Source: Proteobacteria bacterium UBA6156
GTDB lineage: Bacteria > Pseudomonadota > Alphaproteobacteria > UBA2136 > UBA6156
Assembly (NCBI GenBank): GCA_002422365.1
Contig: DIUO01000010.1
Span: 2,739 to 66,738 of the forward strand
Direction of reading: 5' to 3'
DNA length: 64,000 nt
This document shows positions 18,867 through 42,905 of this stretch, piece after piece (position 1 is the stretch's first letter; every line of letters starts with the position of its first letter). Made by a program: the position numbers and the translations under genes. The notes below the pieces were generated by a model, which ran no database searches, was not told where the DNA came from, and worked only from the letters and a program-made list of their open reading frames with translations.

Positions 18867-19247
18867 ATGGAAACTCTCACCAATCTCATCGTCCCGCACC
18901 CCTACCTCGCCATTCTGCTGTTTGCGGGCGTGGCCTTGGGTTTGGCGGCGGTGTTGCAGGCCATTCCGTTCCTCACCCACCCCATGCGCCGTGGTAAGGA
19001 GAAAATCTCCGCCTACGAATCCGGCTTCGAAGCCTTCGACACCGCCCGCCGCACGTTCGATGTCCGCTTCTACCTCGTCGCCATCCTCTTCATCATCTTC
19101 GACCTCGAAGTCGCCTTCCTCTTCCCCTTCGCCATGGTCATCCAAGACATCTCCTGGTTCGGCTTCGGCAGCGTGATGCTGTTCCTCACCGTCCTCACCA
19201 TTGGGTTTGTGTATGAATGGAAACAAGGCGCATTAGAGTGGGAATAA
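18867..19247 (+). CDS. nuoA: NADH-quinone oxidoreductase subunit A
   Basis: 126 aa. YESGFEAFDTARRTFDVRFYLVAILFIIFDLEVAFLFP is canonical NuoA. Confidence 0.92.
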   Translation: METLTNLIVPHPYLAILLFAGVALGLAAVLQAIPFLTHPMRRGKEKISAYESGFEAFDTARRTFDVRFYLVAILFIIFDLEVAFLFPFAMVIQDISWFGFGSVMLFLTVLTIGFVYEWKQGALEWE

Positions 19248-19696
19248 GCGTTCGACTCGTCACGAGAGATTTTTTGCCAAAAGTGCATGCTTTTTTGAGA
19301 GCCACAAACAATGGCAAAGAAGCTGATATTGCAGATGCAAATCTTGCAGTTGCTGCTGCAGATATTCCGCGTAAGCCTCGTTTTGTAATGGCAACCACGC
19401 CCAACGATGAGATTGTTGGCGCTATGTGCTTTAATGAGGAATTTTTCTCGATAGATACATGGGGAATAAGCTGGTTAAATGTTCATGAAAATTATCGTTT
19501 GCAAGGTATAGCTTCACAAATGATTAAACTAGCTGTTAGCGAAATTCAAAAATGTTTGAATGGCAAAAAAGGTACTTTAATTTTGGTAACCTACCCGCAA
19601 AATACAAAGCTGTATGAAAAATTCGGTTTTGAAGTAATCGGACAAGACCACGAGAATGACAGTATTATGACAAAAGTTCTGGAGCCTTTATCATGA
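19217..19696 (+). CDS. GNAT-family N-acetyltransferase inserted between nuoA and nuoB (start uncertain)
   Basis: AT-rich. [22 protein letters not shown]...[10 protein letters not shown] is a GNAT core. Its stop overlaps the nuoB start (ATGA at 19693-19696). The ATG at 19217 overlaps the nuoA 3' end, and a GTG at 19238 is an alternative. Confidence 0.65.
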
Positions 19697-20283
19697 CCGA
19701 CCCCGCATCCATCCGCCAAGCCGGCGAAGCCCAAATGCAAGCCCAACTCCGCGACGAAGGCTTCCTCATCACCAAAGTCGAAGACGTCGTCAACTGGGCC
19801 CGCGCAGGTAGCCTCTGGCCGATGACCTTCGGCCTCGCCTGCTGCGCCGTAGAAATGATGCACAGCGCGGCCTCGCGGTACGACCTCGACCGCTTCGGCA
19901 CCATGTTCCGCCCGTCCCCCCGCCAGAGCGACCTCATGATCATCGCCGGCACCCTCACCAACAAAATGGCCCCGGCCCTGCGCAAGCTGTACGACCAAAT
20001 GCCCGAGCCCCGCTACGTCATTTCCATGGGCAGCTGCGCCAACGGCGGCGGCTACTACCACTTCTCCTACGCCGTGGTGCGCGGTGCCGACCGCATCGTG
20101 CCGGTGGATATTTATGTCCCCGGCTGCCCCCCCACAGCGGAAGCCTTGGTCTACGGCATCCTCCAACTGCAAAAGAAAATCCAGCGCCAACCCGTCTTCG
20201 TGCAACGGCCAGAATCCGCCCCCTACGCCTACGCCCCCGGCGAACCGCGCCCCTACAGCAAAGATGAAATGCACATCGGTTAA
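19693..20283 (+). CDS. nuoB: NADH-quinone oxidoreductase subunit B
   Basis: [16 protein letters not shown] and [17 protein letters not shown] motifs (N2 cluster ligands). Confidence 0.95.
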
Positions 20284-20293
20284 ACCCGAAGTC

Positions 20294-20327
20294 AAAAAAA
20301 AACACGAAACACGAAACACGAAAACAC
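20294..20327 (+). repeat. Family D CA-rich microsatellite (D2)
   Basis: AAAAAAAAACACGAAACACGAAACACGAAAACAC ends 6 nt before the nuoC ATG. Confidence 0.7.
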
Positions 20328-20333
20328 TCGGGC

Positions 20334-21041
20334 ATGACCACCACCCCCCACATCGACACCCACCTAGACCTCAAAGGCCTGCACACCATGGCCGACTATC
20401 TGGCCAAAAAGCTACCCCAAGCACAGCTGAGCATTGCCGTGAGAGAACTCACTCTCACCATCGCCCCAGAGCACATCCCCGCCGCCATCGCCCTCCTGAA
20501 GGACGACAAAAAACTGCAATTCACCCAGTTGATAGACCTCTGCGGAGTCGACTACCTCGGCACCAAACACCCGCACCCCACACGCTTTGCCGTGGTTTAC
20601 CAGCTGCTGTCTATGGCCCACAACCAGCGCCTCCGCGTCAAAACCTACGTTGCCGAAGCCAACCCCGACACCCGACACCCGATACCCGATACCCTCTCCG
20701 TGCCCACCGTAACCCACCTTCACGCCAGCGCGGGCTGGTACGAGCGCGAAACCTACGACATGTACGGCATCAATTTCGTGGGCCACCCAGACCTCCGCCG
20801 CCTGCTCACCGACTACGACTTCGTCGGCCACCCTCTGCGGAAGGACTTCCCCCTGGAAGGCCACGTCGAAGTCTACTACGACGCGAAGGAAAAGCGCGTC
20901 GCCTACAAACCGGTCGACCTTCCTCAGGAACTTCGGCGCTTCGACAACGTTAGTGAATGGCAAGGCGCCACCGGCAATGCCGGGCGCGCTGCTGCCGACA
21001 ATACATTCACCAACTCGTACAATCCCGACGAGTTCAAATAA
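20334..21041 (+). CDS. nuoC: NADH-quinone oxidoreductase subunit C
   Basis: AGWYERETYDMYGINFVGHPDLRRLLTDY and LRKDFPL motifs. Confidence 0.92.
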   Translation: MTTTPHIDTHLDLKGLHTMADYLAKKLPQAQLSIAVRELTLTIAPEHIPAAIALLKDDKKLQFTQLIDLCGVDYLGTKHPHPTRFAVVYQLLSMAHNQRLRVKTYVAEANPDTRHPIPDTLSVPTVTHLHASAGWYERETYDMYGINFVGHPDLRRLLTDYDFVGHPLRKDFPLEGHVEVYYDAKEKRVAYKPVDLPQELRRFDNVSEWQGATGNAGRAAADNTFTNSYNPDEFK

Positions 21042-21062: not shown

Positions 21063-21272
21063 ATGACGTTTTTGACCGCACCCGACCCCGCCGACACCGA
21101 AGCCCACGCCGAACGTATGAAAGAAGAAATGGAAGCCAAACGCGCGGCCGAGCTCGAAGCCGAGCACGAAAACATGATGGAGTTTGCCCGCCGCGCCGCC
21201 CGCAAGCGAGAAGCTGTCGACGAACAACCTTACATTGAAGACAAAGACCTCGCATTCCTGAAAGGCAAATAG
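21063..21272 (+). CDS. small charged hypothetical protein (69 aa)
   Basis: ATG ORF 21 nt after nuoC. Glu/Lys/Ala-rich and helical. No family recognised. Confidence 0.4.
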   Translation: MTFLTAPDPADTEAHAERMKEEMEAKRAAELEAEHENMMEFARRAARKREAVDEQPYIEDKDLAFLKGK

Positions 21273-21361: not shown

Positions 21362-21547
21362 ATGGGTATGTTCTGGAATCTCTATAAACGAATGCTGCCG
21401 GGCGATGCACAGACCATGCTGGCCTGGATAGAAAAAGAAGTGAAAGCAGGCCGCATGAGCGAGGCCGAAGCCGAGCGCCAACGCGCCGAGCTGGAGCAAA
21501 GCCTCCACAAGGTGCTAAGTGCCGAAGAGGACAAGGACAAGTCCTAA
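21362..21547 (+). CDS. small hypothetical protein (61 aa)
   Basis: Its stop overlaps the next ATG (TAATG at 21545-21549), which suggests translational coupling with the MazG-like gene. Confidence 0.4.
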   Translation: MGMFWNLYKRMLPGDAQTMLAWIEKEVKAGRMSEAEAERQRAELEQSLHKVLSAEEDKDKS

Positions 21548-21939
21548 TGCCGCGCTTCCGCACCAACCTGCTCATTCGGGATAACCGCCCGCAGCTGTTT
21601 GCAGCTGCGGGCGCAACGGTGCACACCCGTACCCTTACCGATGCCGAATTTGCAGCCGAGCTGCGTAACAAGCTGATAGAAGAAGCCCAAGAAGCCGCCA
21701 CAGCCCCCACCGAAAACCTGACCAAAGAGCTGGCCGACGTGCTGGAAATCCTGCAAACTCTTGCCGCCCACCATGGTATAAGCATGCAAGATGTCGAGGC
21801 CCAGATGCACGCCACCCGTGCCAAACTTGGCGGGTTCGAACATCGGATCTTCTCCGAAAGCATTGAAGCACCAGAAGATAACGAAACCACAACCTACCAC
21901 CGCCAATACCCGCATAAATACCCGGAAATACAAGAATAA
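21547..21939 (+). CDS. all-alpha NTP pyrophosphohydrolase (MazG/PRA-PH-like)
   Basis: [10 protein letters not shown]..., [28 protein letters not shown] and [12 protein letters not shown] match the KLVRD..EE..E..ElaDvlEv...RGgF pattern. Confidence 0.6.
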
Positions 21940-21953: not shown

Positions 21954-23249
21954 ATGTCCGCCACCCCCGCCCAAGCCGCCCCCAAAACAGTGCTCGAAAC
22001 CACCCTGCCGCAAAGCCCCATCAGCGCCCAGCGCAGTATGGATAGCCAACCCCATGGCGCCCCCGGCGCCAATACTCCATTCACCCTCAACTTCGGCCCC
22101 CAACACCCCTCCGCCCACGGCGTGCTGCGCCTGGTGCTAGAGATGGAAGGCGAGGTAATTACCCGCGCCGACCCCCACATCGGCCTCCTCCACCGTGGCA
22201 CCGAGAAACTCATCGAACACAAAACCTACATTCAGGCGCTCCCATATTTCGACCGCCTCGATTACGTCAGCATGATGTGCCAAGAGCACGTCTGGTGCCT
22301 CGCCACCGAAAAACTGCTGGGGATCGAAATTCCCAAACGCGCCCAATATATCCGCGTGTTGTTCTCCGAGCTCACGCGCATCGCCAACCACCTCCTCTGG
22401 CTCGGCTGCCACGCGCTAGATATCGGCGCTATGGCCGTGATGTTGTATAGCTTTAAGGAACGTGAATATCTCTATGACTTCTCAGAAGAAGTATCCGGCG
22501 CCCGCATGCACGCCAACTACTTCCGCCCGGGCGGCGTCAACCGAGACCTCCCCGAAGGCCTCACCACCAAAATCGCCAAATGGAACGATAATTTCGAGAA
22601 AAACATCATCGGGATGCTCGAAACCCTGCTCGACGATAACCGCATCTGGAAGCAACGCACCGTCGGCATCGGCGTGGTCACACCGGATGAAGCGCAAGAG
22701 TGGGGCTTCACCGGCCCCATGCTGCGCGGCAGCGGCATAGAGTGGGACCTCCGCAAGTCCCAACCGTATGAATGCTACCCCGAACTCGACTTTGCCGTCC
22801 CCGTCGGCCAGAACGGCGACTGCTACGACCGCTACCTCATCCGCATGGAAGAAATGAAGCAATCGGTGCACCTCATCCGCCAGTGCCTGGCTAAACTGGA
22901 GGGCGAACTCAAAGGCCAACCCTGCAAAATCCAGAACTTCAAAATCTCGCCTCCCGCGCGCAATGGCATGAAGTCCAGCATGGAAGACCTCATCCACCAC
23001 TTCAAATACTACACCGAGGGCTTCCACGTCCCGGCGGGAGAAGTCTATGCGGCCATAGAAGCCCCCAAAGGCGAAATGGGCGTGTTTTTGGTGTCCGATG
23101 ACGGCCCCAAACCCTGGCGCGTCAAAATCCGCGCCCCCGGCTACGCCCACCTTCAGGGGCTAGACTTCATGTCCAAAGGCCACCTGTTAGCCGACGTCAC
23201 AACCCTCATCGGCACCACCGACATCGTCTTCGGAGACATCGACCGCTAA
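21954..23249 (+). CDS. nuoD: NADH-quinone oxidoreductase subunit D
   Basis: [23 protein letters not shown]...[10 protein letters not shown] start at 22038 (MDSQPH) is an alternative that would remove a ~28-aa extension. Confidence 0.95.
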
Positions 23250-23794
23250 TGTCCACCATCATCCTCCACGGCGGCCGCACGTCAATCAGCAATCCTTCTA
23301 ATCAGGCTTTCTACAAACTCATGGCCAGCCATGTGCCTCCCGGCGGCACTTGGCTGGGCTGCTACTTTGCCCGGCTGGAAGAAACGGAAGCGCTAAAATT
23401 CCCAGAAGATGCCGCCAAACTCCGCGCCGCCGCCGACCATGAAGTGAATATCGAACTCGCAACCGCCGATAATTTTATTCAACAGCTTCAGTCGGCCAGC
23501 GTCGTCTATTTCGCAGGCGGTAGTACCGAAGGTCTGCTCAACCAACTCTCCCATTGGCCAAATGTGCGCGAACATCTCCTGAAAGTCCCCGTCCTCGCTG
23601 GCTCCTCGGCGGGGATGATCATGCTCGGCCTCAGCGGGGTCGGCAACAAGGGCATTTACCAGGGCCTCGGTATCGTGCCGTTCCATATGCGCGTCCATCA
23701 CGGGCACCCAGACTACGCCCTGGCCGATGCCACCCCGCTCCCCACCCCAACCCTGGCGCTGGAAGAATCCCAATTCATCCAAATCTCAATCTAA
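23249..23794 (+). CDS. peptidase S51 (dipeptidase E)-like protein
   Basis: Its start overlaps the nuoD stop (TAATG). VVYFAGGSTEGLLNQL and VLAGSSAGMIMLG resemble the S51 GGNT and SAG motifs. Confidence 0.6.
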   Translation: MSTIILHGGRTSISNPSNQAFYKLMASHVPPGGTWLGCYFARLEETEALKFPEDAAKLRAAADHEVNIELATADNFIQQLQSASVVYFAGGSTEGLLNQLSHWPNVREHLLKVPVLAGSSAGMIMLGLSGVGNKGIYQGLGIVPFHMRVHHGHPDYALADATPLPTPTLALEESQFIQISI

Positions 23795-23809: not shown

Positions 23810-24562
23810 ATGACCGAAACCACCTGGACCCTCCCCACACCCGACGGCAAAACCATCTACGGCGTCACCAACAGCAGCGGGGCAGGGGCCACAGCCGCCA
23901 TCTTCATGGTGCACGGCTTCACCGGCAACATGTATCAATATCCTTTTAAGCGTGCTGCCGATTTCCTCAGCGCAAAGGGTTACGATGTTTATCGGTTCAA
24001 TCTGTACGATGGGCGAAAGGGAGGCCGCAACCTGATTGACTGCACGTTACTGACTCACGCTGAAGATTTGAATACGATTATGGCAAAATTTGGTCCGGGC
24101 TATACCCAAAACTTTGTAATTGGCCACAGCTATGGCGGCCCCACTATCATGTTGGCTAACCCCCAAAACATCACAGCGGCTAGTCTTTGGGATCCTTCCT
24201 ATAACATCACGCAAATGAATAAGGATTTACCCGACTCTATCACCAAGATAGGCGGCCATCTCATTCTAAATGTGGGCATATCCTATGTGCTCAGTTCATC
24301 TATGGAAGAACATGCCGGAACCCTCGACGAACCCGCCTGCATTAAACTAGCCGAAGCCTTCAACGCCCCCGTCCAAGTCGTGCTGGCCGGAGACGGCTAC
24401 TACGTCAAGCAATCACACAGCTACCACTCCCACGGCAAGCCCGAAAACCTCGCCAAAAACCGCCAAGACGTCGTCCCCGGCACCACCCATTGCTTCCACG
24501 AAGCCGACACCTGCGAAGTGCTCCTCGCCAAAACCCACGCCTTCTTCCAGCAATTCCTCTAA
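23810..24562 (+). CDS. alpha/beta-fold hydrolase
   Basis: Nucleophile elbow GHSYGG, an upstream HGFTGN, and a C-terminal HCFHE. The middle of the gene is AT-rich. Confidence 0.75.
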   Translation: MTETTWTLPTPDGKTIYGVTNSSGAGATAAIFMVHGFTGNMYQYPFKRAADFLSAKGYDVYRFNLYDGRKGGRNLIDCTLLTHAEDLNTIMAKFGPGYTQNFVIGHSYGGPTIMLANPQNITAASLWDPSYNITQMNKDLPDSITKIGGHLILNVGISYVLSSSMEEHAGTLDEPACIKLAEAFNAPVQVVLAGDGYYVKQSHSYHSHGKPENLAKNRQDVVPGTTHCFHEADTCEVLLAKTHAFFQQFL

Positions 24563-24569
24563 GCTCAAT

Positions 24570-24603: not shown

Positions 24604-24687
24604 TTGCCACACCCGCAGGCACCATAACGCGCAAAACAGGGCAGGGGGGCTGCCAAAAGCCCCCATTTGGTTTAAGAATTCTCCATC

Positions 24688-25191
24688 ATGAAGCTCACAT
24701 TCCTGCTCAGCTCAGCCTTGGCGCTTGCGGCGTTCGCAACCTCGTTGGCGTATGCCGAAAAACAGGCCATATGCAAAAAATTTTGCGGAGAAGAAGGCGC
24801 GCTCGTCTGTTGCCCAGGTGAATTTGGTTTCACCGATGACATTACCTCCAGCTATGAAACCCCCGCCCAGCGCTGCCAAACCATCCTGAATCAACCGGCG
24901 GTAGACCTCGACTCCTCGCTGTTAGACGAATTGAAAACCTGCAAGAATGTCGCGAAGCAGGAGAAAGAAGCCGCCGACGCCGAAGCCAAAGCCCTGGCCG
25001 AGCTGGAGGCCGAAAAAGCCAAACTGCGCAAAGAGAAAGCCCAGGCACAGGCCCAGCAGCAACCCCAACCCCAGCCACCCGCACAACCCGCCCCGGCCCA
25101 ACCGGCGCCCAATTTTGTCAACTTCACCAACTTCGGCGCCCAACCCGGAGAAATGCCGCTCATCCAAGACCCCTACAGCCAAAGCCAGTAA
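24688..25191 (+). CDS. secreted protein: Cys-rich N-domain, coiled coil, Gln/Pro-rich tail
   Basis: Signal peptide MKLTFLLSSALALAAFATSLAYA. EAKALAELEAEKAKLRKEKAQAQAQQQPQPQPPAQPAPAQPAP. Confidence 0.6.
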   Translation: MKLTFLLSSALALAAFATSLAYAEKQAICKKFCGEEGALVCCPGEFGFTDDITSSYETPAQRCQTILNQPAVDLDSSLLDELKTCKNVAKQEKEAADAEAKALAELEAEKAKLRKEKAQAQAQQQPQPQPPAQPAPAQPAPNFVNFTNFGAQPGEMPLIQDPYSQSQ

Positions 25192-25196: not shown

Positions 25197-25850
25197 ATGC
25201 CCACCATCCGCCAGGTTAAAATCGAACCCAACGCCACCGAAGTCGGCCAAACCCCGCACACCCTGGGGCTTAACCTGGGCTGGAGCAAAACCGAGCAAGA
25301 GGCCGTAGAGCGTACCCTCGCCAAATACCCCGCCACCCAGCAGCGCAGCGCGGTTATTCCGCTGTTGCATCTGGCCCAGCGTAAGTGCGGCGGCTGGCTG
25401 CCGGTAGACGCCATGCAACTGGTCGCCGATACCCTCAGCCTCCCTTACATCCGCGTGTACGAGGTCGCCACTTTCTACACCATGTTCAACCTCCAACCCG
25501 TCGGCACCCACCACGTGCAGGTCTGCACCAACTGCGCCTGCCTCATTCGCGGTAGCGACGCCATTGTCAGCGCCGTCAAACACACCACTGGGGTCGCCCA
25601 TAACGGAGAAACCTCCGCCGACGGCCAATTCACCCTGACAGAAGTCGAATGCCTCGGCGCCTGCGTCGCCGCCCCCATGATGCAAATTAGTATAGGCACG
25701 GGGGGCACCCACTACTACACCCACCTCACGCCGGAAAAAACTACCGAAATCCTCACTCACCTCGCCAACGGCGGCGACCCCGCAAAATACGCCGACACCG
25801 CCCCCACAGCCGAGTCCGACCCCATCCACAACGGCAAATACGGGGCCTAA
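25197..25850 (+). CDS. nuoE: NADH-quinone oxidoreductase subunit E
   Basis: VYEVATFYTMFNLQPVG, HVQVCTNCACLIRG and ECLGACVAAPM (2Fe-2S ligands). Confidence 0.92.
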   Translation: MPTIRQVKIEPNATEVGQTPHTLGLNLGWSKTEQEAVERTLAKYPATQQRSAVIPLLHLAQRKCGGWLPVDAMQLVADTLSLPYIRVYEVATFYTMFNLQPVGTHHVQVCTNCACLIRGSDAIVSAVKHTTGVAHNGETSADGQFTLTEVECLGACVAAPMMQISIGTGGTHYYTHLTPEKTTEILTHLANGGDPAKYADTAPTAESDPIHNGKYGA

Positions 25851-25855: not shown

Positions 25856-26173
25856 ATGAAAAACTTGCAGCAAGCCACCCTCGCACAACTTCAGGCCTAT
25901 GTGGCGGAAGTCGAGCTGCGCCGTGGCTTTGCCGCCGAAACGGTGCAAGATAAATGCCTGCTGCTGGCCGAAGAAGTCGGCGAACTCTGCAAAGCTATCC
26001 GCAAACATCATACCAGCATCACCACCGCCACCGATGCCAAGCCGCAAAATGTGGCCGAAGAACTGGCCGATGTGCTGATGTACGTCCTTGCCATCGCCAA
26101 CAAAACCGAAATCAACCTTGCCGAAGCGCTCATCGCCAAAGAAACCAAAAACGAACAGCGGAAGTGGGCATAG
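25856..26173 (+). CDS. MazG-domain nucleotide pyrophosphohydrolase (small)
   Basis: 105 aa. LLLAEEVGELCKAIRK and VAEELADVLMYVLAIAN (EExxE/ExxD metal motifs). Confidence 0.75.
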   Translation: MKNLQQATLAQLQAYVAEVELRRGFAAETVQDKCLLLAEEVGELCKAIRKHHTSITTATDAKPQNVAEELADVLMYVLAIANKTEINLAEALIAKETKNEQRKWA

Positions 26174-26175: not shown

Positions 26176-26586
26176 ATGCGTATCGAATATCTCGACACTC
26201 ACGACGAACGCAGCGATGAGTTGTTGTTGGGGCTGCGTCAATGGAACAAGGATCGTGGATTCGAAGCCAAACCCAGCAAGTTCAGTGTAATGGCTTTTGA
26301 AGGTGATGTTCTTAAAGGTGGTGCCAGAGGCATTATTGAATTTAACTGGATGTTTATCCAGACAATGTATGTAAAAGAGCGGCTTAACGGGCTCGGCACC
26401 CGTATCTTGAAAGAAGTCGAAACCCATGCTCGTGCGCAGGGTATAACTGGAATTTCATTACTTACTGTCGATAAACAGGCTCCAGGTTTTTACCAAAAAA
26501 CCGGTTTTAAAAATTTTGCTACAATACCTGATTTTATAGATGGCCAAACCCGATATTATTTCATGAAGCGGCTGGATGGAAAATAA
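26176..26586 (+). CDS. GNAT-family N-acetyltransferase
   Basis: ATG at 26176, 2 nt after the MazG stop. MYVKERLNGLGTRILKEVETHARAQG...FYQKTGFKNF. AT-rich. Confidence 0.8.
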   Translation: MRIEYLDTHDERSDELLLGLRQWNKDRGFEAKPSKFSVMAFEGDVLKGGARGIIEFNWMFIQTMYVKERLNGLGTRILKEVETHARAQGITGISLLTVDKQAPGFYQKTGFKNFATIPDFIDGQTRYYFMKRLDGK

Positions 26587-33418: not shown

Positions 33419-33432
33419 GCCTCTCTAAACTC

Positions 33433-33518: not shown

Positions 33519-33582
33519 GACCAATCAAATCCAAATTGAAGCATCCAACCTAGAAAGCAAGAAACCAAAAATATAAAATCAA

Positions 33583-33668: not shown

Positions 33669-33695
33669 GAATATAACTATCAAAACAGTGCGACC

Positions 33696-35358: not shown

Positions 35359-35380
35359 AAACTAAACACGAAAACACTAA
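35341..35380 (+). repeat. Family D CA-rich microsatellite (D4)
   Basis: GAAAACACCAAACACTAAAAACTAAACACGAAAACACTAA spans the NUDIX stop and ends 4 nt before the nuoJ ATG. Confidence 0.7.
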
Positions 35381-35384
35381 ACCC

Positions 35385-36026
35385 ATGCTCCCCGACCTCA
35401 TCTTCGCTCTCTTCGCCACCGGCATCCTCGTCGGCGCCGGCCTCATCATCGCCGCCCGCAACCCCATGCTCGGCATGCTCGGCATGCTGGTCACCTTCGT
35501 CAACGCGGCGGGGCTGTTTATCCTGTTCGGAGCCGAATTCCTCGGCCTCCTCCTCATCATGGTCTACCTCGGCGCCATCGCCGTCATGTTCTTGTTTGTA
35601 TTAATGACCATCGACCAGGAATTCTTCCAATTAAAGGACAAAGGCCGCGCCTATCTCCCCCTCGGCCTCATCACCGTGGGCGTTCTGGCGGCCGAGTTCA
35701 TCCTCGCCGCCAACTTCGGCCTCTTCAGCACCAACATCACCGTGCTCCCGGCAACCGAGCAACCCCAGAACATCGTCCAAATCGGCACCGTCCTCTTCAC
35801 CACCTACGCGCTGCCGTTCCAGCTCTCCGGGCTGGTGCTGCTCACCGCCATGGTGGGCGCCATTGTGCTCACCCACCGCCCGCGCCCGGGCGTGCGCCGC
35901 CAAAGCATTACGCAACAGGTGCTACGCACTAAGAATGAAGGCCTCACCATGACCAAACCCAAAACAGGGCAGGGCCTCGGCACCCAAACCGCCAAACACT
36001 GGAAACCCAAATCGGTGAGCAAATAG
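35385..36026 (+). CDS. nuoJ: NADH-quinone oxidoreductase subunit J
   Basis: ATG at 35385. [26 protein letters not shown] is canonical NuoJ. Confidence 0.9.
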
Positions 36027-36036: not shown

Positions 36037-36351
36037 ATGTTTTATATGCTGACGCTTTCCCACGTTTTAACGTTCTCCGCCCTCCTCTTCACGCTGGGCC
36101 TGGCGGGCATCGTCCTCAACCGCCGCAACATCATCGCTATTTTAATGTGTATCGAGCTCATGCTCCTCGCCGTCTCCATCAACCTCGTCGGCACCTCCTA
36201 CTTCAGGGCCGATATCGCGGGCCAAATCGTCAGCATGTTCATTCTTACTGTTGCAGCGGCCGAGCTCGCCATCGGCCTCGCCATCGTCACCCTGTTCTTC
36301 CGTAACCGCGGCACAATCGAGATCGACGCCGCCGACCTGATGAAAGGCTAA
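36037..36351 (+). CDS. nuoK: NADH-quinone oxidoreductase subunit K
   Basis: [23 protein letters not shown]...[15 protein letters not shown]. Confidence 0.92.
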
Positions 36352-36355: not shown

Positions 36356-36667
36356 ATGAGCAACCACTCTGTCCTCACCACAACATGCCAAACGTCAAAC
36401 GACCGCGACGCACTCATCAAAGTCGCGCTATCAACTAAACTTGCGGCCTGTGTGCAAGTGTCGCAGGTCACAAGCCACTATGTCTGGCAAAACGAGCAAC
36501 AGCAGTCCGAAGAATATCTCCTCACATTTAAAACCCGCACCGCTTTAATCGAGAAACTCATTACAGAACTTAAAGCTGTGCATAGTTATAAAGTGCCAGA
36601 AATCATCGTGACGCCCATCACCGGCCTACCAGCTTATCTTCAATGGATCGACGAAAGCACCCAGTAA
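36356..36667 (+). CDS. cutA: divalent-cation tolerance protein CutA
   Basis: 103 aa. LAACVQV..., YVWQNE..., HSYKVPEIIVTPI is typical CutA1. Confidence 0.75.
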   Translation: MSNHSVLTTTCQTSNDRDALIKVALSTKLAACVQVSQVTSHYVWQNEQQQSEEYLLTFKTRTALIEKLITELKAVHSYKVPEIIVTPITGLPAYLQWIDESTQ

Positions 36668-36668: not shown

Positions 36669-37106
36669 ATGATCACCTTCCTCAAATACCTCGGCGCCTT
36701 CTGCCTCTTTACCATCGCGGCCTCGCTGGCATTTTGCAGCGTGGGTGTCTATCAGGGCGTGCAAACCGCCAACCGTTACCTTGCGGGGGCCGACAACTAC
36801 ACCTGCCGCCAGTTTGTGTATGACCTCGAAAACCCCACCACCGACAAATTCGCCCCCCTCGCCATCGCCGCCATAGCCTATGGGGTAATGCCGAGGGAGG
36901 ACGGCGTTATCGACGACAACCAAACCGAAATGGAACACAAAGGTATCGAACCCGCCGTGCAAAAAGTGCTGGCACTCTGCAAAGGCAAGCCAGAGGCTCT
37001 TGTGCTCAACGTCTACGCCGCCAGCATCGCCAGCCCTACGGCCAGCCTCACCCAGCCTGTTGCGCCCGAACCCATCACTCCCGATACTCAAAACACTCAA
37101 AACTAA
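36669..37106 (+). CDS. hypothetical membrane-anchored/secreted protein
   Basis: N-terminal hydrophobic segment. Its C-terminal PDTQNTQN is encoded by microsatellite D5. Confidence 0.45.
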   Translation: MITFLKYLGAFCLFTIAASLAFCSVGVYQGVQTANRYLAGADNYTCRQFVYDLENPTTDKFAPLAIAAIAYGVMPREDGVIDDNQTEMEHKGIEPAVQKVLALCKGKPEALVLNVYAASIASPTASLTQPVAPEPITPDTQNTQN

Positions 37107-37125
37107 ACACGAAAAACAAAACAAG
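37086..37125 (+). repeat. Family D CA-rich microsatellite (D5)
   Basis: ACTCAAAACACTCAAAACTAAACACGAAAAACAAAACAAG. Confidence 0.6.
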
Positions 37126-37140
37126 AATAAAGGCACCCCC

Positions 37141-37677
37141 ATGCTCACCACACTCATCCGCTTCAACATCGCATTCATGCTCTCGCTCCTCTCCCTCGCT
37201 ATCGTTGGCTTTATCGGGCTGGTGTGCTGGCTCTATGCCTCCCAGCTTCTCAAGGCAAAATCCACCGTAACCTTCTTCACAACCACCACCTGCGCCCAAT
37301 TCCTCGCCGATGTAAAATCCCAGAATTCCACAAAAATCGAGCCCTACGTCACTCATTTCGAGACTCTCGACACCGAAGAAGTCGCCACGTTCGACAAACC
37401 CCTGTCCGAATCCGAAGCCGGATTCACCACCCTCATGCGGGGCTGCTACAAGCAACCAAACCACACCCTGCGGCAGATAATGCTGGAAGGCGAGGGGCGC
37501 AGCCTTGCGGCTCAGCTGACCGACCTGTACAACACCATCGATGGTGAACTGAAAACCCCCAACCCCATGGCGCCGGAGTTTTACATCAGCCCCACCGAAG
37601 TCATAAGCCCCACTCTCATGACACCTCCTTCCGAAGGCGCCGACGCAACCTCCAAGCCCGAAAAAACAAAAAACTAA
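37141..37677 (+). CDS. hypothetical membrane-anchored protein
   Basis: ATG at 37141. TM segment FMLSLLSLAIVGFIGLVCWLYA. Its C-terminal EKTKN is encoded by D6. Confidence 0.45.
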   Translation: MLTTLIRFNIAFMLSLLSLAIVGFIGLVCWLYASQLLKAKSTVTFFTTTTCAQFLADVKSQNSTKIEPYVTHFETLDTEEVATFDKPLSESEAGFTTLMRGCYKQPNHTLRQIMLEGEGRSLAAQLTDLYNTIDGELKTPNPMAPEFYISPTEVISPTLMTPPSEGADATSKPEKTKN

Positions 37678-37725
37678 ACACAAAAAACTAAACACCAAAC
37701 ACGAAACACTAAACACTAAAACACT
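37661..37725 (+). repeat. Family D CA-rich microsatellite (D6, longest copy)
   Basis: AAAAAACAAAAAACTAAACACAAAAAACTAAACACCAAACACGAAACACTAAACACTAAAACAC ends 8 nt before the nuoL ATG. Confidence 0.75.
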
Positions 37726-37733
37726 CCAAAACC

Positions 37734-39809
37734 ATGTCCCCTCTCGCGCCCCACATCGTTGCCCAACTCACCGCACTTGCAGTGCTGCTGCCTGCCATGG
37801 GCGCGCTGCTGGGGGCGTTCACGTTCCTGCTCTGGCCCACGCTTAAGGCTAAATTAGAGGCCCACGACGCCCACACCCACCACGAGCCCGAATCCCCCAC
37901 CGCACCCCCCATCGCCCACCACGCCGCCATGGCCCTCACCACCGGCAGCGTGCTGGCGGCGGCGGCCCTCAGCTGGTGGCTGTTTGTGGGGCTTAATACC
38001 GGCACCATCAGCCCCGCCACCACCCACTGGTTCACCTGGTTCAGCGCGGGCAGCTGGTCGGTAACGTTTGGCACCATGCTCGACAAACTCTCCGCCACCA
38101 TGCTCATCGTCGTCACCACCGTCTCGGCCTGCGTGCACGTCTACAGCTGGGGCTATATGGCCGACGACGTTGCAAAACGCCGCTTCTTCATCTACCTCTC
38201 CGCCTTCACCTTCGCCATGCTCATGCTGGTCACCGCGCCCAACCTCGCGCAAATGTTTTTGGGGTGGGAAGGGGTCGGCGTCTGCTCCTATCTCCTCATA
38301 GGCTTCTGGTATCACAAAGCCACCGCCAACGCCGCCGCCATCAAGGCCTTTATCGTCAACCGGGTGGCCGACGCCGCCATGCTCATCGGCCTCTTCATCC
38401 TCGTCCAAACCTTCGGCACACTCACCTATACCGAAATTTTCACTCAATTAGAGAACCAAACCCCCACCAGCCTCGCCACCTCCAGCCCCATTAGCCTGGC
38501 GGCCTTGCTGCTCTTCATCGGTGCTATGGGCAAATCCGCCCAGTTCGGGCTGCACACCTGGTTGCCGGACGCCATGGAAGGCCCCACCCCCGTCTCCGCC
38601 CTCATCCACGCCGCCACCATGGTCACCGCAGGCGTGTTCCTGCTCTGCCGTATGTCGCCACTGTACGAGGCCGCGCCGGATGTCCTGACTATCGTCGGCT
38701 GGGTCGGCGCCATCACCGCCCTGTTCGCCGCCACGGTGGGCCTCACCCAAACCGATATCAAACGCGTCATCGCCTACTCCACCTGCTCGCAACTGGGCTA
38801 CATGTTCTTCGCCATCGGCGTGTCGGCCTACCCCGCCGCCATGTTCCACCTCACCACCCACGCGTTCTTCAAGGCGCTGCTGTTCTTGGGCGCGGGCTCG
38901 GTCATCCATGGCATGCACCACGAGCAAAACATCTTCAAATACGCTTCCTCCGGTTACATCCTGCGCAAACTCCTCCCCGTCACCTATGTCCTCATGTGGC
39001 TGGGCAGCTTGGCGCTCGCCGGTATCCCGCCGTTTGCAGGGTTTTTCAGTAAAGACCTCATCATAGAATCCGCCTTCGCCGCCCCCGGCAACACCGGCAT
39101 CCCGCTCTATATCATTGGCACGCTGGCCGCCGCGCTCACCGCCATCTACGGCTTCCGCATCATCTTCATGAGCTTCCACAACCCCGCAAAAACCTCCGAA
39201 ATCGTCCACACCAAAACACCCAACACGAAACACCAAAACACGAAACACGAACACACCAGTACCCCCCACGAATCCCCCTGGACCATGCTCGCCCCCATGC
39301 TCCCTCTGGCCCTGGGTGCCGTGCTGGGCGGCTACCTGCTTAAAAATATGGGCACATTAGAATGGTGGAACGGCGCCATCGTCATCCACCACGCGCACAC
39401 GGCCCTGCATAACGCCCACCACATTCCCGGCTGGGCCAAGGCATTGCCGCTGGTGCTGGCTGTCTCCGGCATTGCGCTGGCGTTCTACCTCTTTGTGCGC
39501 CACCGCAACATTCCGCAGCGCATTGCGCAGGCCGTGCCCGCCGCCTACGCCTTCAGCTATCATAAATGGTATATCGACGAAGCCTATCAAGTCCTCTGGG
39601 TCAACCCCACCGCCAGCATCGCCGCCTTCTTTGCCGAGTGGGGAGACAAACGCAGCATAGATGCCCTCCTTAACGGCGGCGCCTCCACCGTCGCAGGCTT
39701 CGGCCAGTGGCTCCGCCAGGCCCAAACCGGCTACGTCACCCACTACGCCTTCGCCATGCTGTTGGCTCTCACCCTAGGCCTCGGCTATCTCCTCTGGAAA
39801 GTCATGTAA
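37734..39809 (+). CDS. nuoL: NADH-quinone oxidoreductase subunit L
   Basis: 691 aa. WEGVGVCSYLLIGFWY, GKSAQFGLHTWLPDAMEGPTPVSALIHAATMVTAG. Confidence 0.96.
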   Translation: MSPLAPHIVAQLTALAVLLPAMGALLGAFTFLLWPTLKAKLEAHDAHTHHEPESPTAPPIAHHAAMALTTGSVLAAAALSWWLFVGLNTGTISPATTHWFTWFSAGSWSVTFGTMLDKLSATMLIVVTTVSACVHVYSWGYMADDVAKRRFFIYLSAFTFAMLMLVTAPNLAQMFLGWEGVGVCSYLLIGFWYHKATANAAAIKAFIVNRVADAAMLIGLFILVQTFGTLTYTEIFTQLENQTPTSLATSSPISLAALLLFIGAMGKSAQFGLHTWLPDAMEGPTPVSALIHAATMVTAGVFLLCRMSPLYEAAPDVLTIVGWVGAITALFAATVGLTQTDIKRVIAYSTCSQLGYMFFAIGVSAYPAAMFHLTTHAFFKALLFLGAGSVIHGMHHEQNIFKYASSGYILRKLLPVTYVLMWLGSLALAGIPPFAGFFSKDLIIESAFAAPGNTGIPLYIIGTLAAALTAIYGFRIIFMSFHNPAKTSEIVHTKTPNTKHQNTKHEHTSTPHESPWTMLAPMLPLALGAVLGGYLLKNMGTLEWWNGAIVIHHAHTALHNAHHIPGWAKALPLVLAVSGIALAFYLFVRHRNIPQRIAQAVPAAYAFSYHKWYIDEAYQVLWVNPTASIAAFFAEWGDKRSIDALLNGGASTVAGFGQWLRQAQTGYVTHYAFAMLLALTLGLGYLLWKVM
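39207..39257 (+). repeat. Family D CA-rich microsatellite inside nuoL (D7)
   Basis: CACACCAAAACACCCAACACGAAACACCAAAACACGAAACACGAACACACC, read in frame as HTKTPNTKHQNTKHEHT. Confidence 0.7.
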
Positions 39810-41408
39810 ATGAATCATCTCCTCACCCTCCTCATCGCCCTCCCGCTGGCCAGCGCGCTGTTCACCTACGCCGCGCCCACGCGCTACACCAGGCAACTCG
39901 CCCTGGCCCTCAGCCTCATCCCGCTGGCCCTGTGCGTGCCCTTGTTCCAGCACTTCAACCCGGCCCAGCCTGGCTTACAGTTTACCGAGTCCCACGCCTG
40001 GCTCCCCGCCTTCAACATCACCTATGCACTGGGGATAGACGGCCTCTCCCTCCCGCTCATCGCCCTCACAGCGCTCCTCACCCCGCTTTGCCTCCTCGCC
40101 AGCTGGGGCGTCCAAAAAAATCCGCAGGGCTTTTTCGCCAGTTTTCTGGCATTAGAGGCCTTTGTCATCGGCGTCTTCGCCGCGCAAGATTTCATCCTGT
40201 TCTATCTGTTCTGGGAGGCCATGCTCATCCCCATGTTCCTCCTCATCGGCCTGTGGGGAGGCGAAAACCGCGTCTACGCCGCCCTCAAATTCTTCCTCTA
40301 CACCTTTGTGGGCTCCGTGCTTATGCTCATCGCGGGCCTCTGGCTTTACAGCATCACGGGTAGCTTTAGTCTGGAGCTCTGGCAAAACACCACCCTCACA
40401 CTCGGTGCCCAAAAGTGGCTGTTCCTCGCCTTCTTCGCCGCCTTCGCGGTCAAGGTTCCCATGTGGCCGTTCCATACTTGGCTGCCGGATGCCCACGTCC
40501 AAGCCCCCACCGCAGGTTCCGTCATCCTGGCGGGCGTGCTGCTCAAAATGGGGGCCTACGGCTTCCTGCGCTTTTGTTTGCCGATGTTCCCCGAGGGCTC
40601 CGCCTACTTCGCCCCCATGGTCTTCACCCTTTCCGCCGTCGCCGTGGTCTACGCCGCGCTGGTGGCCTATGTGCAAACCGATATTAAGAAGATGATCGCC
40701 TACTCCTCCGTCTCCCACATGGGCTTCGTCACGCTGGCTGCCTTTTCCGGCACGGTCACCGGCCTGCACGGCAGTCTGCTGGTCATGGTCAACCACGGCA
40801 TCGTCTCCGCCGGGTTGTTTTTGGGGGTAGGGGTCATTTACGAGCGCCTGCACACCCGCCAACTCGCCCACTTCGGCGGCCTCGCCAAAATCATGCCCGC
40901 CTATGCTTTTGCCATGATGCTCCTCACCCTCGCCGCCGTAGCCTTGCCGGGCACGAATAGCTTTGTCGGAGAATTCCTCGCCCTCATGGGCAGCTGGCCC
41001 ACCGCCCCCGTCTACACCGCCATCGCCACCTCCGGCGTGGTCTTCGGCGCGCTCTACATGCTCCACCTCTACCGTGGCATGTTCTTCGGCACGCCGTCCG
41101 AGACTGTCCACCACCATGTGAATGACCTCAAAGACCTCACCCCGCGCGAGTGGCTCACCTTCGCGCCCCTCCTCGCCCTCATCCCGCTGCTGGGCCTCAT
41201 GCCCTCACTGGTGCAAAACCTCTGGCAACAGCCGGTGCAGGCCATTTCGCAAGAATACCTCCCCGCCCTCCAAGCCCGCATCGCCCACCAACCCGGCATG
41301 CCGATAATTCTGCCCGAAGCCGAACCAGCCCCCGAGCCCGCCTCGACACCCCTAGCAACCCCCATCGTCTCGCAAACCCTAACCCCCACACCAACCACCA
41401 CTTACTAA
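39810..41408 (+). CDS. nuoM: NADH-quinone oxidoreductase subunit M
   Basis: Starts 1 nt after the nuoL TAA. FAVKVPMWPFHTWLPDAHVQAPTAGSVILAGVLLKMG. Confidence 0.96.
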   Translation: MNHLLTLLIALPLASALFTYAAPTRYTRQLALALSLIPLALCVPLFQHFNPAQPGLQFTESHAWLPAFNITYALGIDGLSLPLIALTALLTPLCLLASWGVQKNPQGFFASFLALEAFVIGVFAAQDFILFYLFWEAMLIPMFLLIGLWGGENRVYAALKFFLYTFVGSVLMLIAGLWLYSITGSFSLELWQNTTLTLGAQKWLFLAFFAAFAVKVPMWPFHTWLPDAHVQAPTAGSVILAGVLLKMGAYGFLRFCLPMFPEGSAYFAPMVFTLSAVAVVYAALVAYVQTDIKKMIAYSSVSHMGFVTLAAFSGTVTGLHGSLLVMVNHGIVSAGLFLGVGVIYERLHTRQLAHFGGLAKIMPAYAFAMMLLTLAAVALPGTNSFVGEFLALMGSWPTAPVYTAIATSGVVFGALYMLHLYRGMFFGTPSETVHHHVNDLKDLTPREWLTFAPLLALIPLLGLMPSLVQNLWQQPVQAISQEYLPALQARIAHQPGMPIILPEAEPAPEPASTPLATPIVSQTLTPTPTTTY

Positions 41409-41428
41409 ACACAAAACACAAAACACGA
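41406..41428 (+). repeat. Family D CA-rich microsatellite (D8)
   Basis: TAAACACAAAACACAAAACACGA begins at the nuoM stop codon (41406-41408) and ends 7 nt before the nuoN start. Confidence 0.6.
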
Positions 41429-41435
41429 GCAATCC

Positions 41436-42905
41436 ATGACCTCCCTCGACCTCCTCCTCACCACCCCGCTGCTCGTTCTCGGCGGCGGCAGCCTGTTGCT
41501 CCTCATGCTGGGGGCCTTCACCCAGTCGGCGCGCGCCACCGCCATCGGCGCGGCGGTGGTCATTCTGGCGGCCATGGCACAGCTGGTCATCGCGCCCGCC
41601 AGCGGCCCGGTGTTTCCGCTAGAATCCGGGGCAGGGGCCTCTCAAGTCAGCAACTTGGCCGGCCACCTCATGCACGTCTCGCCCTTCACCAACATCGCCA
41701 CTCTCATCCTCCTCGGCATCAGTCTTCTCTGCATGCCTCTTGTCGGGCCCTATTTCCGGGCCGCCAAGGCCCACCGGCCCGAGGTTTACGTCCTCCTCAC
41801 ATTGTCGCTGACAGGCATGGTCGCCCTCATCACCTCCGCCCACCTCCTCACGCTTTATGTGGCGCTCGAGCTCATGACCTTCCCCCTCTACATCCTCGCC
41901 GCCTTTTTAAGGGACGACGCGAAAAGCTCCGAATCCGGCCTCAAATACTACGTCCTCGGCAGCATGGCCTCGGGGCTGATGCTCTACGGCATCTCGCTCC
42001 TCTACGCGGGCCTCGGCACCCTCAGCTACACGGGCGTGTTCACCGCACTCAACACGGCCGTGGCAAGCGGCGGGGTCACGCCCATTCTGCTGGTGGGCAT
42101 GGTGCTGGTGCTCACTGCCGCACTCTTCAAGCTCTCAGTGGCCCCGTTCCATATGTGGACACCCGACGTCTACGAAGGCGCCCCCACCCCAGTCACCGCC
42201 ATCATGGGCAGCCTACCCAAAATCGCCGCCGTGGCGCTGCTCATCCGCCTGCTGGCAGGGCCTTTCGATGCCCTCGCCTCCCTCTGGCAACCCACCCTGG
42301 CCTGGCTGGCCGTGGCCTCCATGCTGGTGGGCGCGGTGCTGGCCATTGCGCAAACCAACCTTAAGCGCTTGCTCGCCTATTCCACCATCGCCAACATCGG
42401 CTTCATTCTGGTGGGGGTGGTGGCGGCCAACCCGCAGGGGGCTTCGGGCGCCATGCTTTACCTCGCCATCTATGCCTTTACCACCCTGGGCCTCTTTGCC
42501 GCGCTTATGGCCAGCGGCGCCAACAATGTGTCCGACCTCAAAGGCCTCGCCACCCGCAACCCCTACCTCGCGGGCACCTTTTTGCTGTTGTTGTTCAGCC
42601 TCGCGGGCATCCCCCCGCTGGCGGGCTTCATGGCCAAGTTTGCAGTGTTCACTGCCGCCGTGCAGGCCGGGCTCATGCCGCTGGCCATTGCGGGCGTGCT
42701 CTCCAGCGTGCTCGCGCTGTTCTACAGCCTCTGGCTCATCAAGGTGATGATCTTCGACCACCCCGAAACCCTCACCCCCACCCCCGCCATCCCCCTAAGC
42801 CTGGCCTACATTATGCTCCTCAGCGCCATGGCCACCCTCATCCTCGGCATCTTCCCCAGCCTGCTCGGCAACCTCACCCTCGCCGCCGCCACCGCCATTT
42901 TCTAG
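41436..42905 (+). CDS. nuoN: NADH-quinone oxidoreductase subunit N
   Basis: LFKLSVAPFHMWTPDVYEGAPTPVTA, KRLLAYSTIANIGF. Confidence 0.95.
   Translation: MTSLDLLLTTPLLVLGGGSLLLLMLGAFTQSARATAIGAAVVILAAMAQLVIAPASGPVFPLESGAGASQVSNLAGHLMHVSPFTNIATLILLGISLLCMPLVGPYFRAAKAHRPEVYVLLTLSLTGMVALITSAHLLTLYVALELMTFPLYILAAFLRDDAKSSESGLKYYVLGSMASGLMLYGISLLYAGLGTLSYTGVFTALNTAVASGGVTPILLVGMVLVLTAALFKLSVAPFHMWTPDVYEGAPTPVTAIMGSLPKIAAVALLIRLLAGPFDALASLWQPTLAWLAVASMLVGAVLAIAQTNLKRLLAYSTIANIGFILVGVVAANPQGASGAMLYLAIYAFTTLGLFAALMASGANNVSDLKGLATRNPYLAGTFLLLLFSLAGIPPLAGFMAKFAVFTAAVQAGLMPLAIAGVLSSVLALFYSLWLIKVMIFDHPETLTPTPAIPLSLAYIMLLSAMATLILGIFPSLLGNLTLAAATAIF

Follow-up and report, generated by a model that had tools for sequence, protein, structure and literature searches.

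Here we show that the nuo operon of Proteobacteria bacterium UBA6156, which encodes complex I, is expanded to about 24 kb by inserted genes, and that the set of inserts differs in every relative compared. The operon lies in a stretch of 64,000 nucleotides (hereafter the window, meaning the whole stretch analysed) from GenBank assembly GCA_002422365.1, contig DIUO01000010.1, positions 2,739 to 66,738 of the forward strand. The genes nuoA to nuoN, all 14 of them on the + strand, keep the canonical order at 18867-42905, a span of 24,039 bp, and 24.0 kb is the largest nuo span among the operons measured here. Nineteen open reading frames (ORFs) that are not nuo genes, all co-oriented with the nuo genes, add 8,244 bp of coding sequence to the 14,868 bp of the nuo genes themselves. 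A preliminary description of the window, made from the sequence alone, had reported a nuoA-N operon of ~24 kb with 8 of 13 junctions occupied, which the ORF positions bear out, and about 22 non-nuo ORFs, a figure that falls to 19 since it took in the hairpin repeats described below. We interpret the nuo junctions of this clade, with a probability of roughly 0.6, as a permissive intra-operon hotspot at which promoterless, co-oriented genes are taken up and turned over. Essential multi-subunit operons are usually deemed the most frozen of all; the present respiratory operon, with its 14 genes, accommodates 55% of additional coding DNA, which is swapped among relatives.

The inserts, numbered i1 to i19 along the operon and all on the + strand, are placed at the junctions A/B (one ORF), C/D (three), D/E (three), E/F (three), F/G (one), G/H (one), I/J (four) and K/L (three), a junction being named by the letters of its two nuo genes. 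Eighteen are intact and one, a GIY-YIG gene, is frameshifted, and I/J additionally harbours two copies of a hairpin repeat of ~118 nt. The insert-free junctions have gaps of 50 (B/C), 31 (H/I), 10 (J/K), 0 (L/M) and 27 nt (M/N). At A/B, a GNAT acetyltransferase gene (i1, 19217-19696; Pfam, E 2e-10) starts inside the end of nuoA. C/D holds a charged helical ORF of 69 aa with no Pfam match (i2, 21063-21272), a small charged ORF of 61 aa (i3, 21362-21547; ratio of nonsynonymous to synonymous substitution rates, dN/dS, 0.25) and a MazG/PRA-PH-like NTP pyrophosphatase (i4, 21547-21939; PF01503, E 7e-6). D/E carries a peptidase S51-like gene (i5, 23249-23794; PF03575, 27.0 bits against a cutoff of 23.9), an alpha/beta hydrolase with a GHSYG motif (i6, 23810-24562; PF00561, E 1e-8) and a secreted, Cys-rich, coiled-coil, PQ-rich protein with a signal peptide in its sequence (i7, 24688-25191). 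E/F is filled by a MazG (i8, 25856-26173; PF03819, E 3.5e-10; dN/dS 0.10), a second GNAT (i9, 26176-26586; PF00583, E 2e-9) and a small lipoprotein recognised by its lipobox (i10, 26590-26871), F/G by a secreted protein of 224 aa with 4 invariant Cys (i11, 28203-28877), and G/H by a papain-fold (C39-like) cysteine peptidase-like protein (i12, 31160-31843). At I/J the GIY-YIG pseudogene (i13, 33696-33990; PF01541, E 4e-8, N-terminal half) is followed by a DR2231-like all-alpha NTP pyrophosphatase of the PRA-PH type (i14, 33999-34367; PF01503, E 4e-13), a kinase-like P-loop NTPase (i15, 34364-34927) and a NUDIX hydrolase resembling NUDT1/NUDT15/MutT (i16, 34924-35358; PF00293, E 1e-19). K/L contains CutA1 (i17, 36356-36667; PF03091, E 1e-28), a membrane-anchored or secreted protein with a weak HdeA-like match (i18, 36669-37106) and a membrane-anchored ORF with no homologue found (i19, 37141-37677).

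Pfam analysis confirmed the earlier domain calls for two GNATs, the S51 peptidase, the alpha/beta hydrolase, the NUDIX hydrolase, CutA, GIY-YIG and three MazG proteins. The GIY-YIG gene had also been called a pseudogene, correctly so: it bears a single frameshift near 33840, and its C-terminal half lies in a different frame. Only part of the label papain/C39-like, given to i12, could be retained. The papain fold is supported by an AlphaFold model (predicted local distance difference test, pLDDT, 80; predicted template modelling score, pTM, 0.81), whose top PDB match is PeiR (TM 0.51), with a Josephin-like clippase and cathepsins among the further matches, and by the conserved set Cys17/His164/Asp181, but the C39 Pfam match lies below the cutoff (E 9e-4). 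Likewise, the call of a kinase for i15 is reduced to a Walker-A P-loop, the family matches being weak otherwise. The i14 protein matched DR2231 in the PDB (2yeu/5hva) with E about 2e-14 across residues 2-118 and possesses the EExxE / ExxD metal-binding motifs; by whole-domain similarity and motifs it is assigned as a DR2231-like MazG, a candidate NTP pyrophosphatase. The i16 protein matched PDB entry 4kyx (E 6e-28) and has an intact Nudix box. No insert meets any curated NCBIfam cutoff, and therefore no specific enzyme names are given here. AlphaFold on i11 with 9 sequences gave an unusable model (pLDDT 46.7); the i11 family comprises 9 clusters in 5.8e9 proteins.

The presence of Pfam domains in 12 of the 19 ORFs, the motifs found intact on inspection (Nudix box, GxSxG, EExxE and the GNAT R/Q-x-x-G-x-G/A) and dN/dS values of 0.10-0.55 against orthologues (0.08-0.23 for nuo genes) support the inserts as real genes. 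The expansion could instead be an artefact, due either to chimerism or mis-assembly of the contig or to the calling of spurious ORFs in non-coding spacers, and the metagenomic source and the want of a family assignment for i2, i3, i7 and i19 could be cited in its favour. However, a 103-kb ENA contig and a Logan contig share the identical arrangement, insert proteins are recorded in 3-4 sources (NCBI, JGI, Logan and ENA), homologous expanded operons occur in many metagenome-assembled genomes (MAGs), and the frames of the orthologues are open, with dN/dS <1. With independent assemblies and MAGs showing expanded operons, the mis-assembly that the preliminary description had considered is not supported, and an artefact has next to no probability.

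Relatives were scanned with one genome per species, and their nuo loci are referred to by L-numbers. NuoG identity to the window was 75-77% for L003-L006, 61% for L007, 58% for L008 and 54-56% for L009-L011, and the nuo operons of all these loci were expanded, to 17-21 kb. Three more clade contigs, L165, L169 and L170, were found via the i11 family and also had expanded operons, and loci with a NuoG identity of 48% or less were mostly compact (~14 kb). A metagenome scan for closer relatives returned nothing above ~80% NuoG identity, that match being a fragment of 1.9 kb. The insert sets differed in every relative (L003-L011, L165, L169 and L170).

The rate at which the contents change is best seen in L003 and L004, which are 95% identical over NuoH, NuoI and NuoJ yet differ in what they carry at C/D, D/E, E/F, H/I and I/J. 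The i4 gene of the window is shared by L004 only (73% identical), being absent from L003 and L165, and i7 is 38-40% identical in L004 and L165 and absent from L003. Four inserts, i1, i5, i6 and i12, are common to the window and L007 and/or L165 and are absent from L003-L006. The sole homologue of i1 is a GNAT at A/B of L007 (32%); i5 is found at D/E of L165 (72%) and in L007 (40%) but at F/G; i6 is 60% identical in L165 and 51% in L007, and missing in L003/L004; and homologues of i12 were seen only at G/H, in L007 (56%) and L165 (34%). The i19 gene is unique, its position being filled in L003-L006 by another family, fam11. The i2 gene is conserved at C/D in L003, L004 and L165, i3 is 62-63% identical in L003/L004 and 53% in L165, and i8 is 86% identical in L003 and 82% in L165.

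The same families also occupy different junctions in different genomes. The GNAT of the i9 type is at E/F in the window, at H/I in L004 and at D/E in L007; the i15-type P-loop gene is at I/J in the window and L005 (63%), at G/H in L009 (35%), and absent from L165; and CutA is at K/L in the window and L003/L004, and at L/M in L008. This holds for the PRA-PH family as well, the DR2231-like members of which (i14 family, n=23) are at I/J in the clade and at G/H in 15 Micavibrio-like loci. Moreover, insert identities do not always follow the core genes. The NUDIX protein of I/J in the window is 76-78% identical to those of L007/L165 and 51% to those of L003/L004, and L003 and L004 share 48% with each other. 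The i12 protein is discordant with the core tree, being closer to L007 (56%) than to the nearer relative L165 (34%), and the synonymous divergence (dS) of the PRA-PH gene between L003 and L004 is 1.38, as compared to 0.44-0.77 in its flanks. The synteny comparison thus agreed with a history of acquisition in that each relative has a different insert set, but not for all the cargo, as several inserts (i10, i11, i14 and i18) are old and fixed.

Insertions could be located exactly where occupied and empty sites were compared with L003, L004 and L165, ORF-precise meaning here exact within 2-3 nt of the ATG and stop. The i1 gene is bounded exactly by the nuoA stop and the nuoB start, the empty junction in L003/L004 being TAG-ACACATG. 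The i9 gene follows the i8 stop and precedes the i10 ATG (TAG-CG-ATG...TAA-GCC-ATG in the window, TAG-TC-ATG in L003), and i15, joined to i14 and to i16 by ATGA, has TAATG as its empty site in L165. No terminal repeats or target-site duplications were seen at the i1, i9 and i15 insertions.

Composition also sets the inserts apart. Their mean G+C content at third codon positions (GC3) is 0.63 (range 0.32-0.79), as compared to 0.81 for the nuo genes (0.76-0.87) and 0.73 for 47 other genes of the window, and the inserts are lower than the nuo genes (p = 3e-6) and than the 47 others (p = 4e-4; Mann-Whitney). The earlier observation that many inserts are AT-rich is thereby confirmed, for i1 (GC 0.39, GC3 0.32), i9 (0.43 and 0.41) and i12 (0.45 and 0.51); i17 has a GC3 of 0.55, and every relative carries singleton inserts of its own, often with a GC3 of 0.35-0.56. 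As a control, we took the co-directional cluster frr-uppS-rseP-bamA-ompH-lpxD-fabZ-lpxA-lpxI-lpxB on the same contig, which has 0 inserts in 10 junctions. The gene flux is thus specific to nuo.

The inserts are tightly packed. Of 27 junctions with an insert on at least one side, 16 show an overlap or a spacer of <=5 nt, mostly -4 to +5 nt. TAATG overlaps join i3/i4, nuoD/i5, nuoF/i11 and i11/nuoG, ATGA overlaps join i1/nuoB, i14/i15 and i15/i16, and many of the remaining junctions read TAA-N(1-5)-CC-ATG; the overlaps reported earlier between the GNAT gene and nuoB (ATGA), between nuoD and the S51 gene (TAATG) and at both ends of the F/G ORF (TAATG) were all found as described. A Shine-Dalgarno (SD) motif is missing before most of the tightly packed starts. 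A general lack of SD motifs as the cause of the permissiveness of the clade was considered and dropped: an SD-like 4-mer precedes 41% of 78 window genes, the chance value being 10%, so the genome is not SD-free. Within the operon, terminator-like and promoter-like matches occur about as often as in shuffled sequence. Read-through transcription and coupled translation would be the natural expectation from such tight, co-oriented packing. The top sigma-70-like match in the operon (ATGACA-16-TATCAT, 10/12, 19667-19694) is in the AT-rich 3' end of i1, its -10 element overlapping the nuoB start, and may be a spurious product of the AT-rich insert.

On the hotspot interpretation, genes without promoters would lodge, co-oriented with the operon, exactly between a stop codon and the following start. 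They would be transcribed by read-through from the nuo promoter and translated by stop-start coupling or re-initiation, as the junctions of -4 to +5 nt and the usually missing SD motifs suggest. Downstream nuo genes would rely on this translational relay, and selection would keep only ORF-precise insertions, the purging of those that break the relay giving rise to the ORF-precise architecture. Contents would turn over rapidly through gain, loss and replacement. Exchange would most likely occur by homologous recombination via the conserved nuo flanks, along with occasional illegitimate insertion; since these flanks supply homology for exchange at the junctions, mosaic and discordant patterns would follow. 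Most inserts would then be passengers that gain constitutive expression, not parts of complex I. If co-transcription and coupling hold, the locus would offer a model for how promoterless genes gain expression inside an essential operon and a means to test how translational coupling limits viable insertion sites. It could also be tested there, against an alphaproteobacterial background, whether passengers are recruited as accessory subunits, a question relevant to where the supernumerary subunits of mitochondrial complex I came from.

The precision of the insertions raises the question of a dedicated mobility mechanism that sets ORF-sized units at stop-start junctions, i.e., an integrase-free cassette system. 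Candidates would be GIY-YIG breaks with homing-like repair that copies neighbouring genes, or microhomology and template switching at TAA-N-ATG. GIY-YIG genes clearly invade nuo junctions: 11 loci, belonging to several lineages, have an intact or frameshifted one at C/D, D/E, F/G, G/H, I/J or J/K. Two further copies in the window abut the 3' ends of genes with spacers of 0-5 nt, three insertions are exact within 2-3 nt, and the same families appear at different junctions. Such genes recall free-standing homing endonucleases (T4 seg/mob; GIY-YIG/LAGLIDADG near mitochondrial nad), which are likewise small genes, GIY-YIG among them, between conserved genes, with presence/absence polymorphism across junctions and decay to pseudogenes. 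In contrast to those, the intact relatives here are of ~98-111 aa, with the catalytic domain only and no recognisable linked DNA-binding domain, and they are a minority of the inserts. Further, the copy in the operon is a pseudogene, most occupied junctions have no GIY-YIG gene nearby, and nuo, with 1 GIY-YIG gene in 24 kb, is no richer in them than the remainder of the window, with 2 in 40 kb. Terminal repeats and target-site duplications are absent from the three clean insertions, the precision of which can be accounted for by selection for preserved coupling. A mobility mechanism of this kind is therefore improbable, and a nuclease-driven cassette mechanism in particular is possible but unsupported. 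A broader form of the idea, in which an integrase-free platform with a junction-specific mechanism moves ATG-to-stop units from one stop-start junction to another, inside a genome and from genome to genome, and some of the enzymes become complex I components, appears just as doubtful; if true, it would be a bacterial re-run of the acquisition of supernumerary subunits by mitochondrial complex I.

The two further GIY-YIG genes of the window are at 58341-58658 (- strand, 105 aa, GC3 0.56), abutting the 3' end of a co-oriented RadC gene with a gap of 0 nt, and at 62800-63096 (+ strand, 98 aa, GC3 0.52), abutting the 3' end of a co-oriented MoCF_biosynth gene with a gap of 5 nt. Repeats are present just downstream of both, at 58270-58327 and as two 102-nt copies at 63138-63239 and 63326-63427 that are 95% identical.

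We also considered that nuo might harbour an anti-phage defence island or a cassette array of the integron type. The inserts do resemble chromosomal integron cassettes in being short, promoterless and co-oriented ORFs behind an upstream promoter, with a spectrum rich in GNAT, MazG, NUDIX and lipoprotein genes, and insert families have phage counterparts. But neither intI nor another integrase was found when the called genes in the window and in its flanks were checked, and there is no attC: an imperfect palindrome of about 60-140 nt would not fit into the spacers of -4 to +5 nt that prevail at the junctions. The inserts are also interleaved with essential genes. Because of the missing room for attC and the missing integrase, the integron idea was dropped, and the defence island was dropped because PADLOC gave 0 matches for 9 of 10 enzymes, the NUDIX protein matching a generic candidate model only. 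Both are very improbable.

The inserts that stay in place call for separate consideration. The i10 lipoprotein family is at E/F in L003, L004, L006, L007, L010, L011 and L165, i11 is at F/G in 6 of 6 contexts examined, and i18 is at K/L in L003-L006, 49-79% identical; the GC3 of i10, i11, i14 and i18 is native (0.72-0.79). These data invite the alternative that some or all inserts are partners of complex I, namely accessory subunits, assembly factors or protective enzymes that are co-expressed stoichiometrically. NUDIX and MazG enzymes could, for example, sanitise nucleotides beside a source of reactive oxygen species, and periplasmic proteins or lipoproteins could bind the membrane arm. Such partnership would agree with the fixed position of i11 and its 4 invariant Cys, with the i10 family at E/F throughout the clade, with DR2231-like PRA-PH genes inside nuo in 23 of the 146 loci of the census given below, from two separate lineages, with the recurrence of GNATs at F/G in Micavibrio-like loci, and with a strong functional bias of the cargo. 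There is also a precedent in CI-PIMT, an enzyme-derived, lineage-specific supernumerary subunit of P. denitrificans complex I that has lost its catalytic residues (PMC11522691). As in the present case, CI-PIMT is a lineage-specific protein of an enzyme family in an alphaproteobacterium, and in its case recruitment to complex I took place. It is, however, not reported as operon-embedded (PMC11522691), whereas the inserts are embedded in the operon and keep their catalytic motifs, which in CI-PIMT are degenerate. No insert matched NDUFS4, NDUFS6, NDUFA12 or any other Complex1 family in Pfam or NCBIfam. Most inserts are patchy or confined to a single genome, so that close relatives manage without them, the same families are at differing junctions, and the dN/dS of the inserts is 2-5 times the nuo value. 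We consider a partner role of the inserts unlikely on this evidence. The repeated linkage of DR2231-like, MazG and NUDIX genes to nuo nevertheless prompts the hypothesis of a tie between the expression of complex I and the sanitation of the nucleotide pool.

Several points weigh against the hotspot interpretation. The stable positions of i10, i11, i14 and i18 fit a role in complex I as well as they fit hitch-hiking. Saturation or rate variation could mimic the discordant identities and the one raised dS. The GNAT at A/B of L007 has the same overlap with nuoA and is low in GC3 too (0.47, the nuo mean being 0.85), hence low GC3 is no clean clock. The specificity control is a single cluster. No donor was found for any insert; searches with i1 and i12 among 5.8e9 proteins returned only the query itself and one relative each, and therefore no donor lineage can be named. 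Finally, the transcript could be broken or modulated within the operon. The hairpin repeats at I/J flank a weak promoter-like site, and co-transcription across I/J is uncertain because of these two strong hairpin repeats and that site. At D/E, the terminator-like scan flagged a GC-rich stem-loop followed by ATTTGGTTTAAGA on the + strand at 24645-24664, upstream of i7. It is conserved in L003 (6247) and L004 (6451), where i7 or nuoE follows it; possible roles within the operon are attenuation, processing and stabilisation.

Extra ORFs among complex I genes have been known from the 1990s onwards. Those of the nqo operon of Paracoccus denitrificans are a familiar case, and about 6-7 extra ORFs are present in the Rhodobacter/Paracoccus operons, as compared to 19 here. 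The URF (unidentified reading frame) operons of these genera resemble the present one in their arrangement, with 14 core genes in canonical order and co-oriented extra ORFs between them. The present operon differs in that 8 junctions are occupied, including the rarely used A/B (1% of loci), in that the inserts are mostly recognisable enzyme domains, and in that their contents vary among close relatives. For R. capsulatus, ORFs intermixed with nuo genes are mentioned in PMC4758237 in a remark that cites Dupuis et al. 1998. A search of the accessible literature gave nothing specific on nuo with GIY-YIG or on the Paracoccus URFs beyond this R. capsulatus remark. In a census of 146 non-redundant alphaproteobacterial nuo loci, in which a junction gap of at least 300 bp was counted as an insert, such gaps occurred in 1% of loci at A/B, 2% at B/C, 8% at C/D, 14% at D/E, 17% at E/F, 28% at F/G, 20% at G/H, 6% at H/I, 16% at I/J, 7% at J/K, 11% at K/L and 6% at L/M. 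From these rates, inserted ORFs are widespread in alphaproteobacterial nuo operons, in line with the R. capsulatus remark.

The 80 junction ORFs of the relatives included 8 PRA-PH, 4 MazG, 3 NUDIX, 3 GNAT, 3 CutA, 3 DUF805 and 3 GIY-YIG genes. The cargo is non-random: small nucleotide-pool enzymes (MazG/PRA-PH, NUDIX, P-loop) with intact catalytic motifs, acetyltransferases, hydrolases, CutA and small envelope proteins predominate. The DUF805 membrane proteins recur at F/G (L010, L011 and L170), the gene in L170 (2407-2787) lying between nuoF and the i11 homologue. Apparent F/G inserts of 4-6 kb in Micavibrio-like genomes were left out of the comparison, as they are opposite-strand purL/purQ genes that split the operon. 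In these genomes (L068, L069, L070, L074, L076, L078, L080, L082, L052, L134, L140 and L164), purL (~970 aa) and purQ (~273 aa) part nuoF from nuoG, and the DR2231-like PRA-PH gene is at G/H of the same split loci.

The operon may also be set beside chromosomal hotspots of horizontal gene transfer, with which it shares variable content between conserved flanks, atypical composition and conflict between the phylogenies of cargo and flanks. In contrast to those, the variable sites here are individual intercistronic junctions of a polycistronic operon that is essential, and the units are ORF-sized, with neither promoters, terminators and integrases nor tRNA anchors. The locus is, in the best reading that the comparisons allow, an extreme form, uncommonly dynamic, of the URF phenomenon already known from nuo/nqo operons, and would not make a new category. 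The landing pad for acquired genes proposed in the preliminary description is therefore to be qualified: the flux is real and nuo-specific, but some of the inserts are old, and an arrangement of this kind is known. In the same manner, the density of the inserts is unusual, as had been remarked, but the phenomenon is of a known kind, in view of R. capsulatus and the 146-locus census.

The nuo genes themselves were identified mainly by Pfam and are all on the + strand: nuoA (18867-19247; PF00507; 87% identical to L003/L004), nuoB (19693-20283; PF01058), nuoC (20334-21041; PF00329), nuoD (21954-23249; PF00346), nuoE (25197-25850; PF01257), nuoF (26887-28203; PF01512), nuoG (28877-31156; Pfam), nuoH (31849-32898; PF00146), nuoI (32930-33418; Fer4 families), nuoJ (35385-36026; PF00499, E 1e-32), nuoK (36037-36351; PF00420), nuoL (37734-39809; Pfam), nuoM (39810-41408; Pfam) and nuoN (41436-42905; identified by tblastn against relatives). 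NuoG has a Pro/Ala-rich N-terminal extension of ~50 residues (28877-29030), of which L003/L004 have a shorter form, and NuoD has an N-terminal extension of ~40 residues as compared to distant relatives (21954-22080). Upstream of nuoA, after a gap of 129 nt, are co-oriented genes for an AFG1-family ATPase and a RimK-like ATP-grasp protein (16554-18737); AFG1 is a mitochondrial-type protein. Downstream of nuoN, a + strand ORF of 124 aa for which no family was found (42994-43368) precedes an intrinsic-terminator-like hairpin with 7 GC pairs and a T run (43396-43413, + strand). This was the sole convincing hit of the terminator scan and is the probable end of the operon.

The two hairpin repeats at I/J (33424-33541, minimum free energy, MFE, -46 kcal/mol, z -4.4; 33574-33691, -49.5 kcal/mol, z -6.2; both on the + strand) belong to a repeat termed Family A, which has a conserved hairpin core of ~85 nt in a unit of ~118 nt and 9 copies in the window, all on the + strand. 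The copies outside the operon are at 3321-3438, 4171-4288, 7436-7553, 9401-9518, ~46080-46200, ~51107-51230 and 55691-55808. Each copy begins directly behind the stop of a gene on the + strand, the MFE ranges from -42 to -50 kcal/mol, and compensatory substitutions distinguish the inner stems of the copies. An Rfam scan of the whole window found no family, and the hairpin repeats are thus unclassified. Family A looks like a REP/MITE-like element (repetitive extragenic palindrome or miniature inverted-repeat transposable element) or an RNA element of 3' ends.

Another repeat, of AAACAC type, is located directly upstream of the starts of nuoC, nuoJ, i19, nuoL and nuoN (copies at 20293-20349, 35343-35399, 37091-37147, 37690-37746 and 41355-41423), with copies elsewhere at 14663-14719, 57042-57098 and 60937-61005. 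Two further copies are in frame within nuoG (30612-30668, an insertion by alignment) and nuoL (39214-39270) and encode NTKHQ-like peptides, the copy in NuoG being an 8-residue loop insertion specific to the window as compared to all relatives. A second intergenic repeat family, with the core CACCCCTACCCATC..AGCACTTCCTGTAAAT, has 4 copies (477-513, 4362-4398, 9689-9725 and 58295-58331).

Elsewhere in the window, a methyltransferase-domain gene of 428 aa (13294-14580, - strand) has a GC of 0.47 and a GC3 of 0.47, the GC of the window being ~0.60, and was probably acquired recently. The strands of the window differ strongly and uniformly in composition, the + strand having 35.4% C as compared to 23.4% G, and 23.1% A as compared to 18.1% T; nearly all 1-kb bins show a GC skew of about -0.2, and the genes are mostly on the + strand. 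Seven tandem units of 18 nt (52878-53057, within the ORF 52798-53079) encode an Ala/Pro/Met/Glu hexapeptide in a hypothetical protein of 93 aa.

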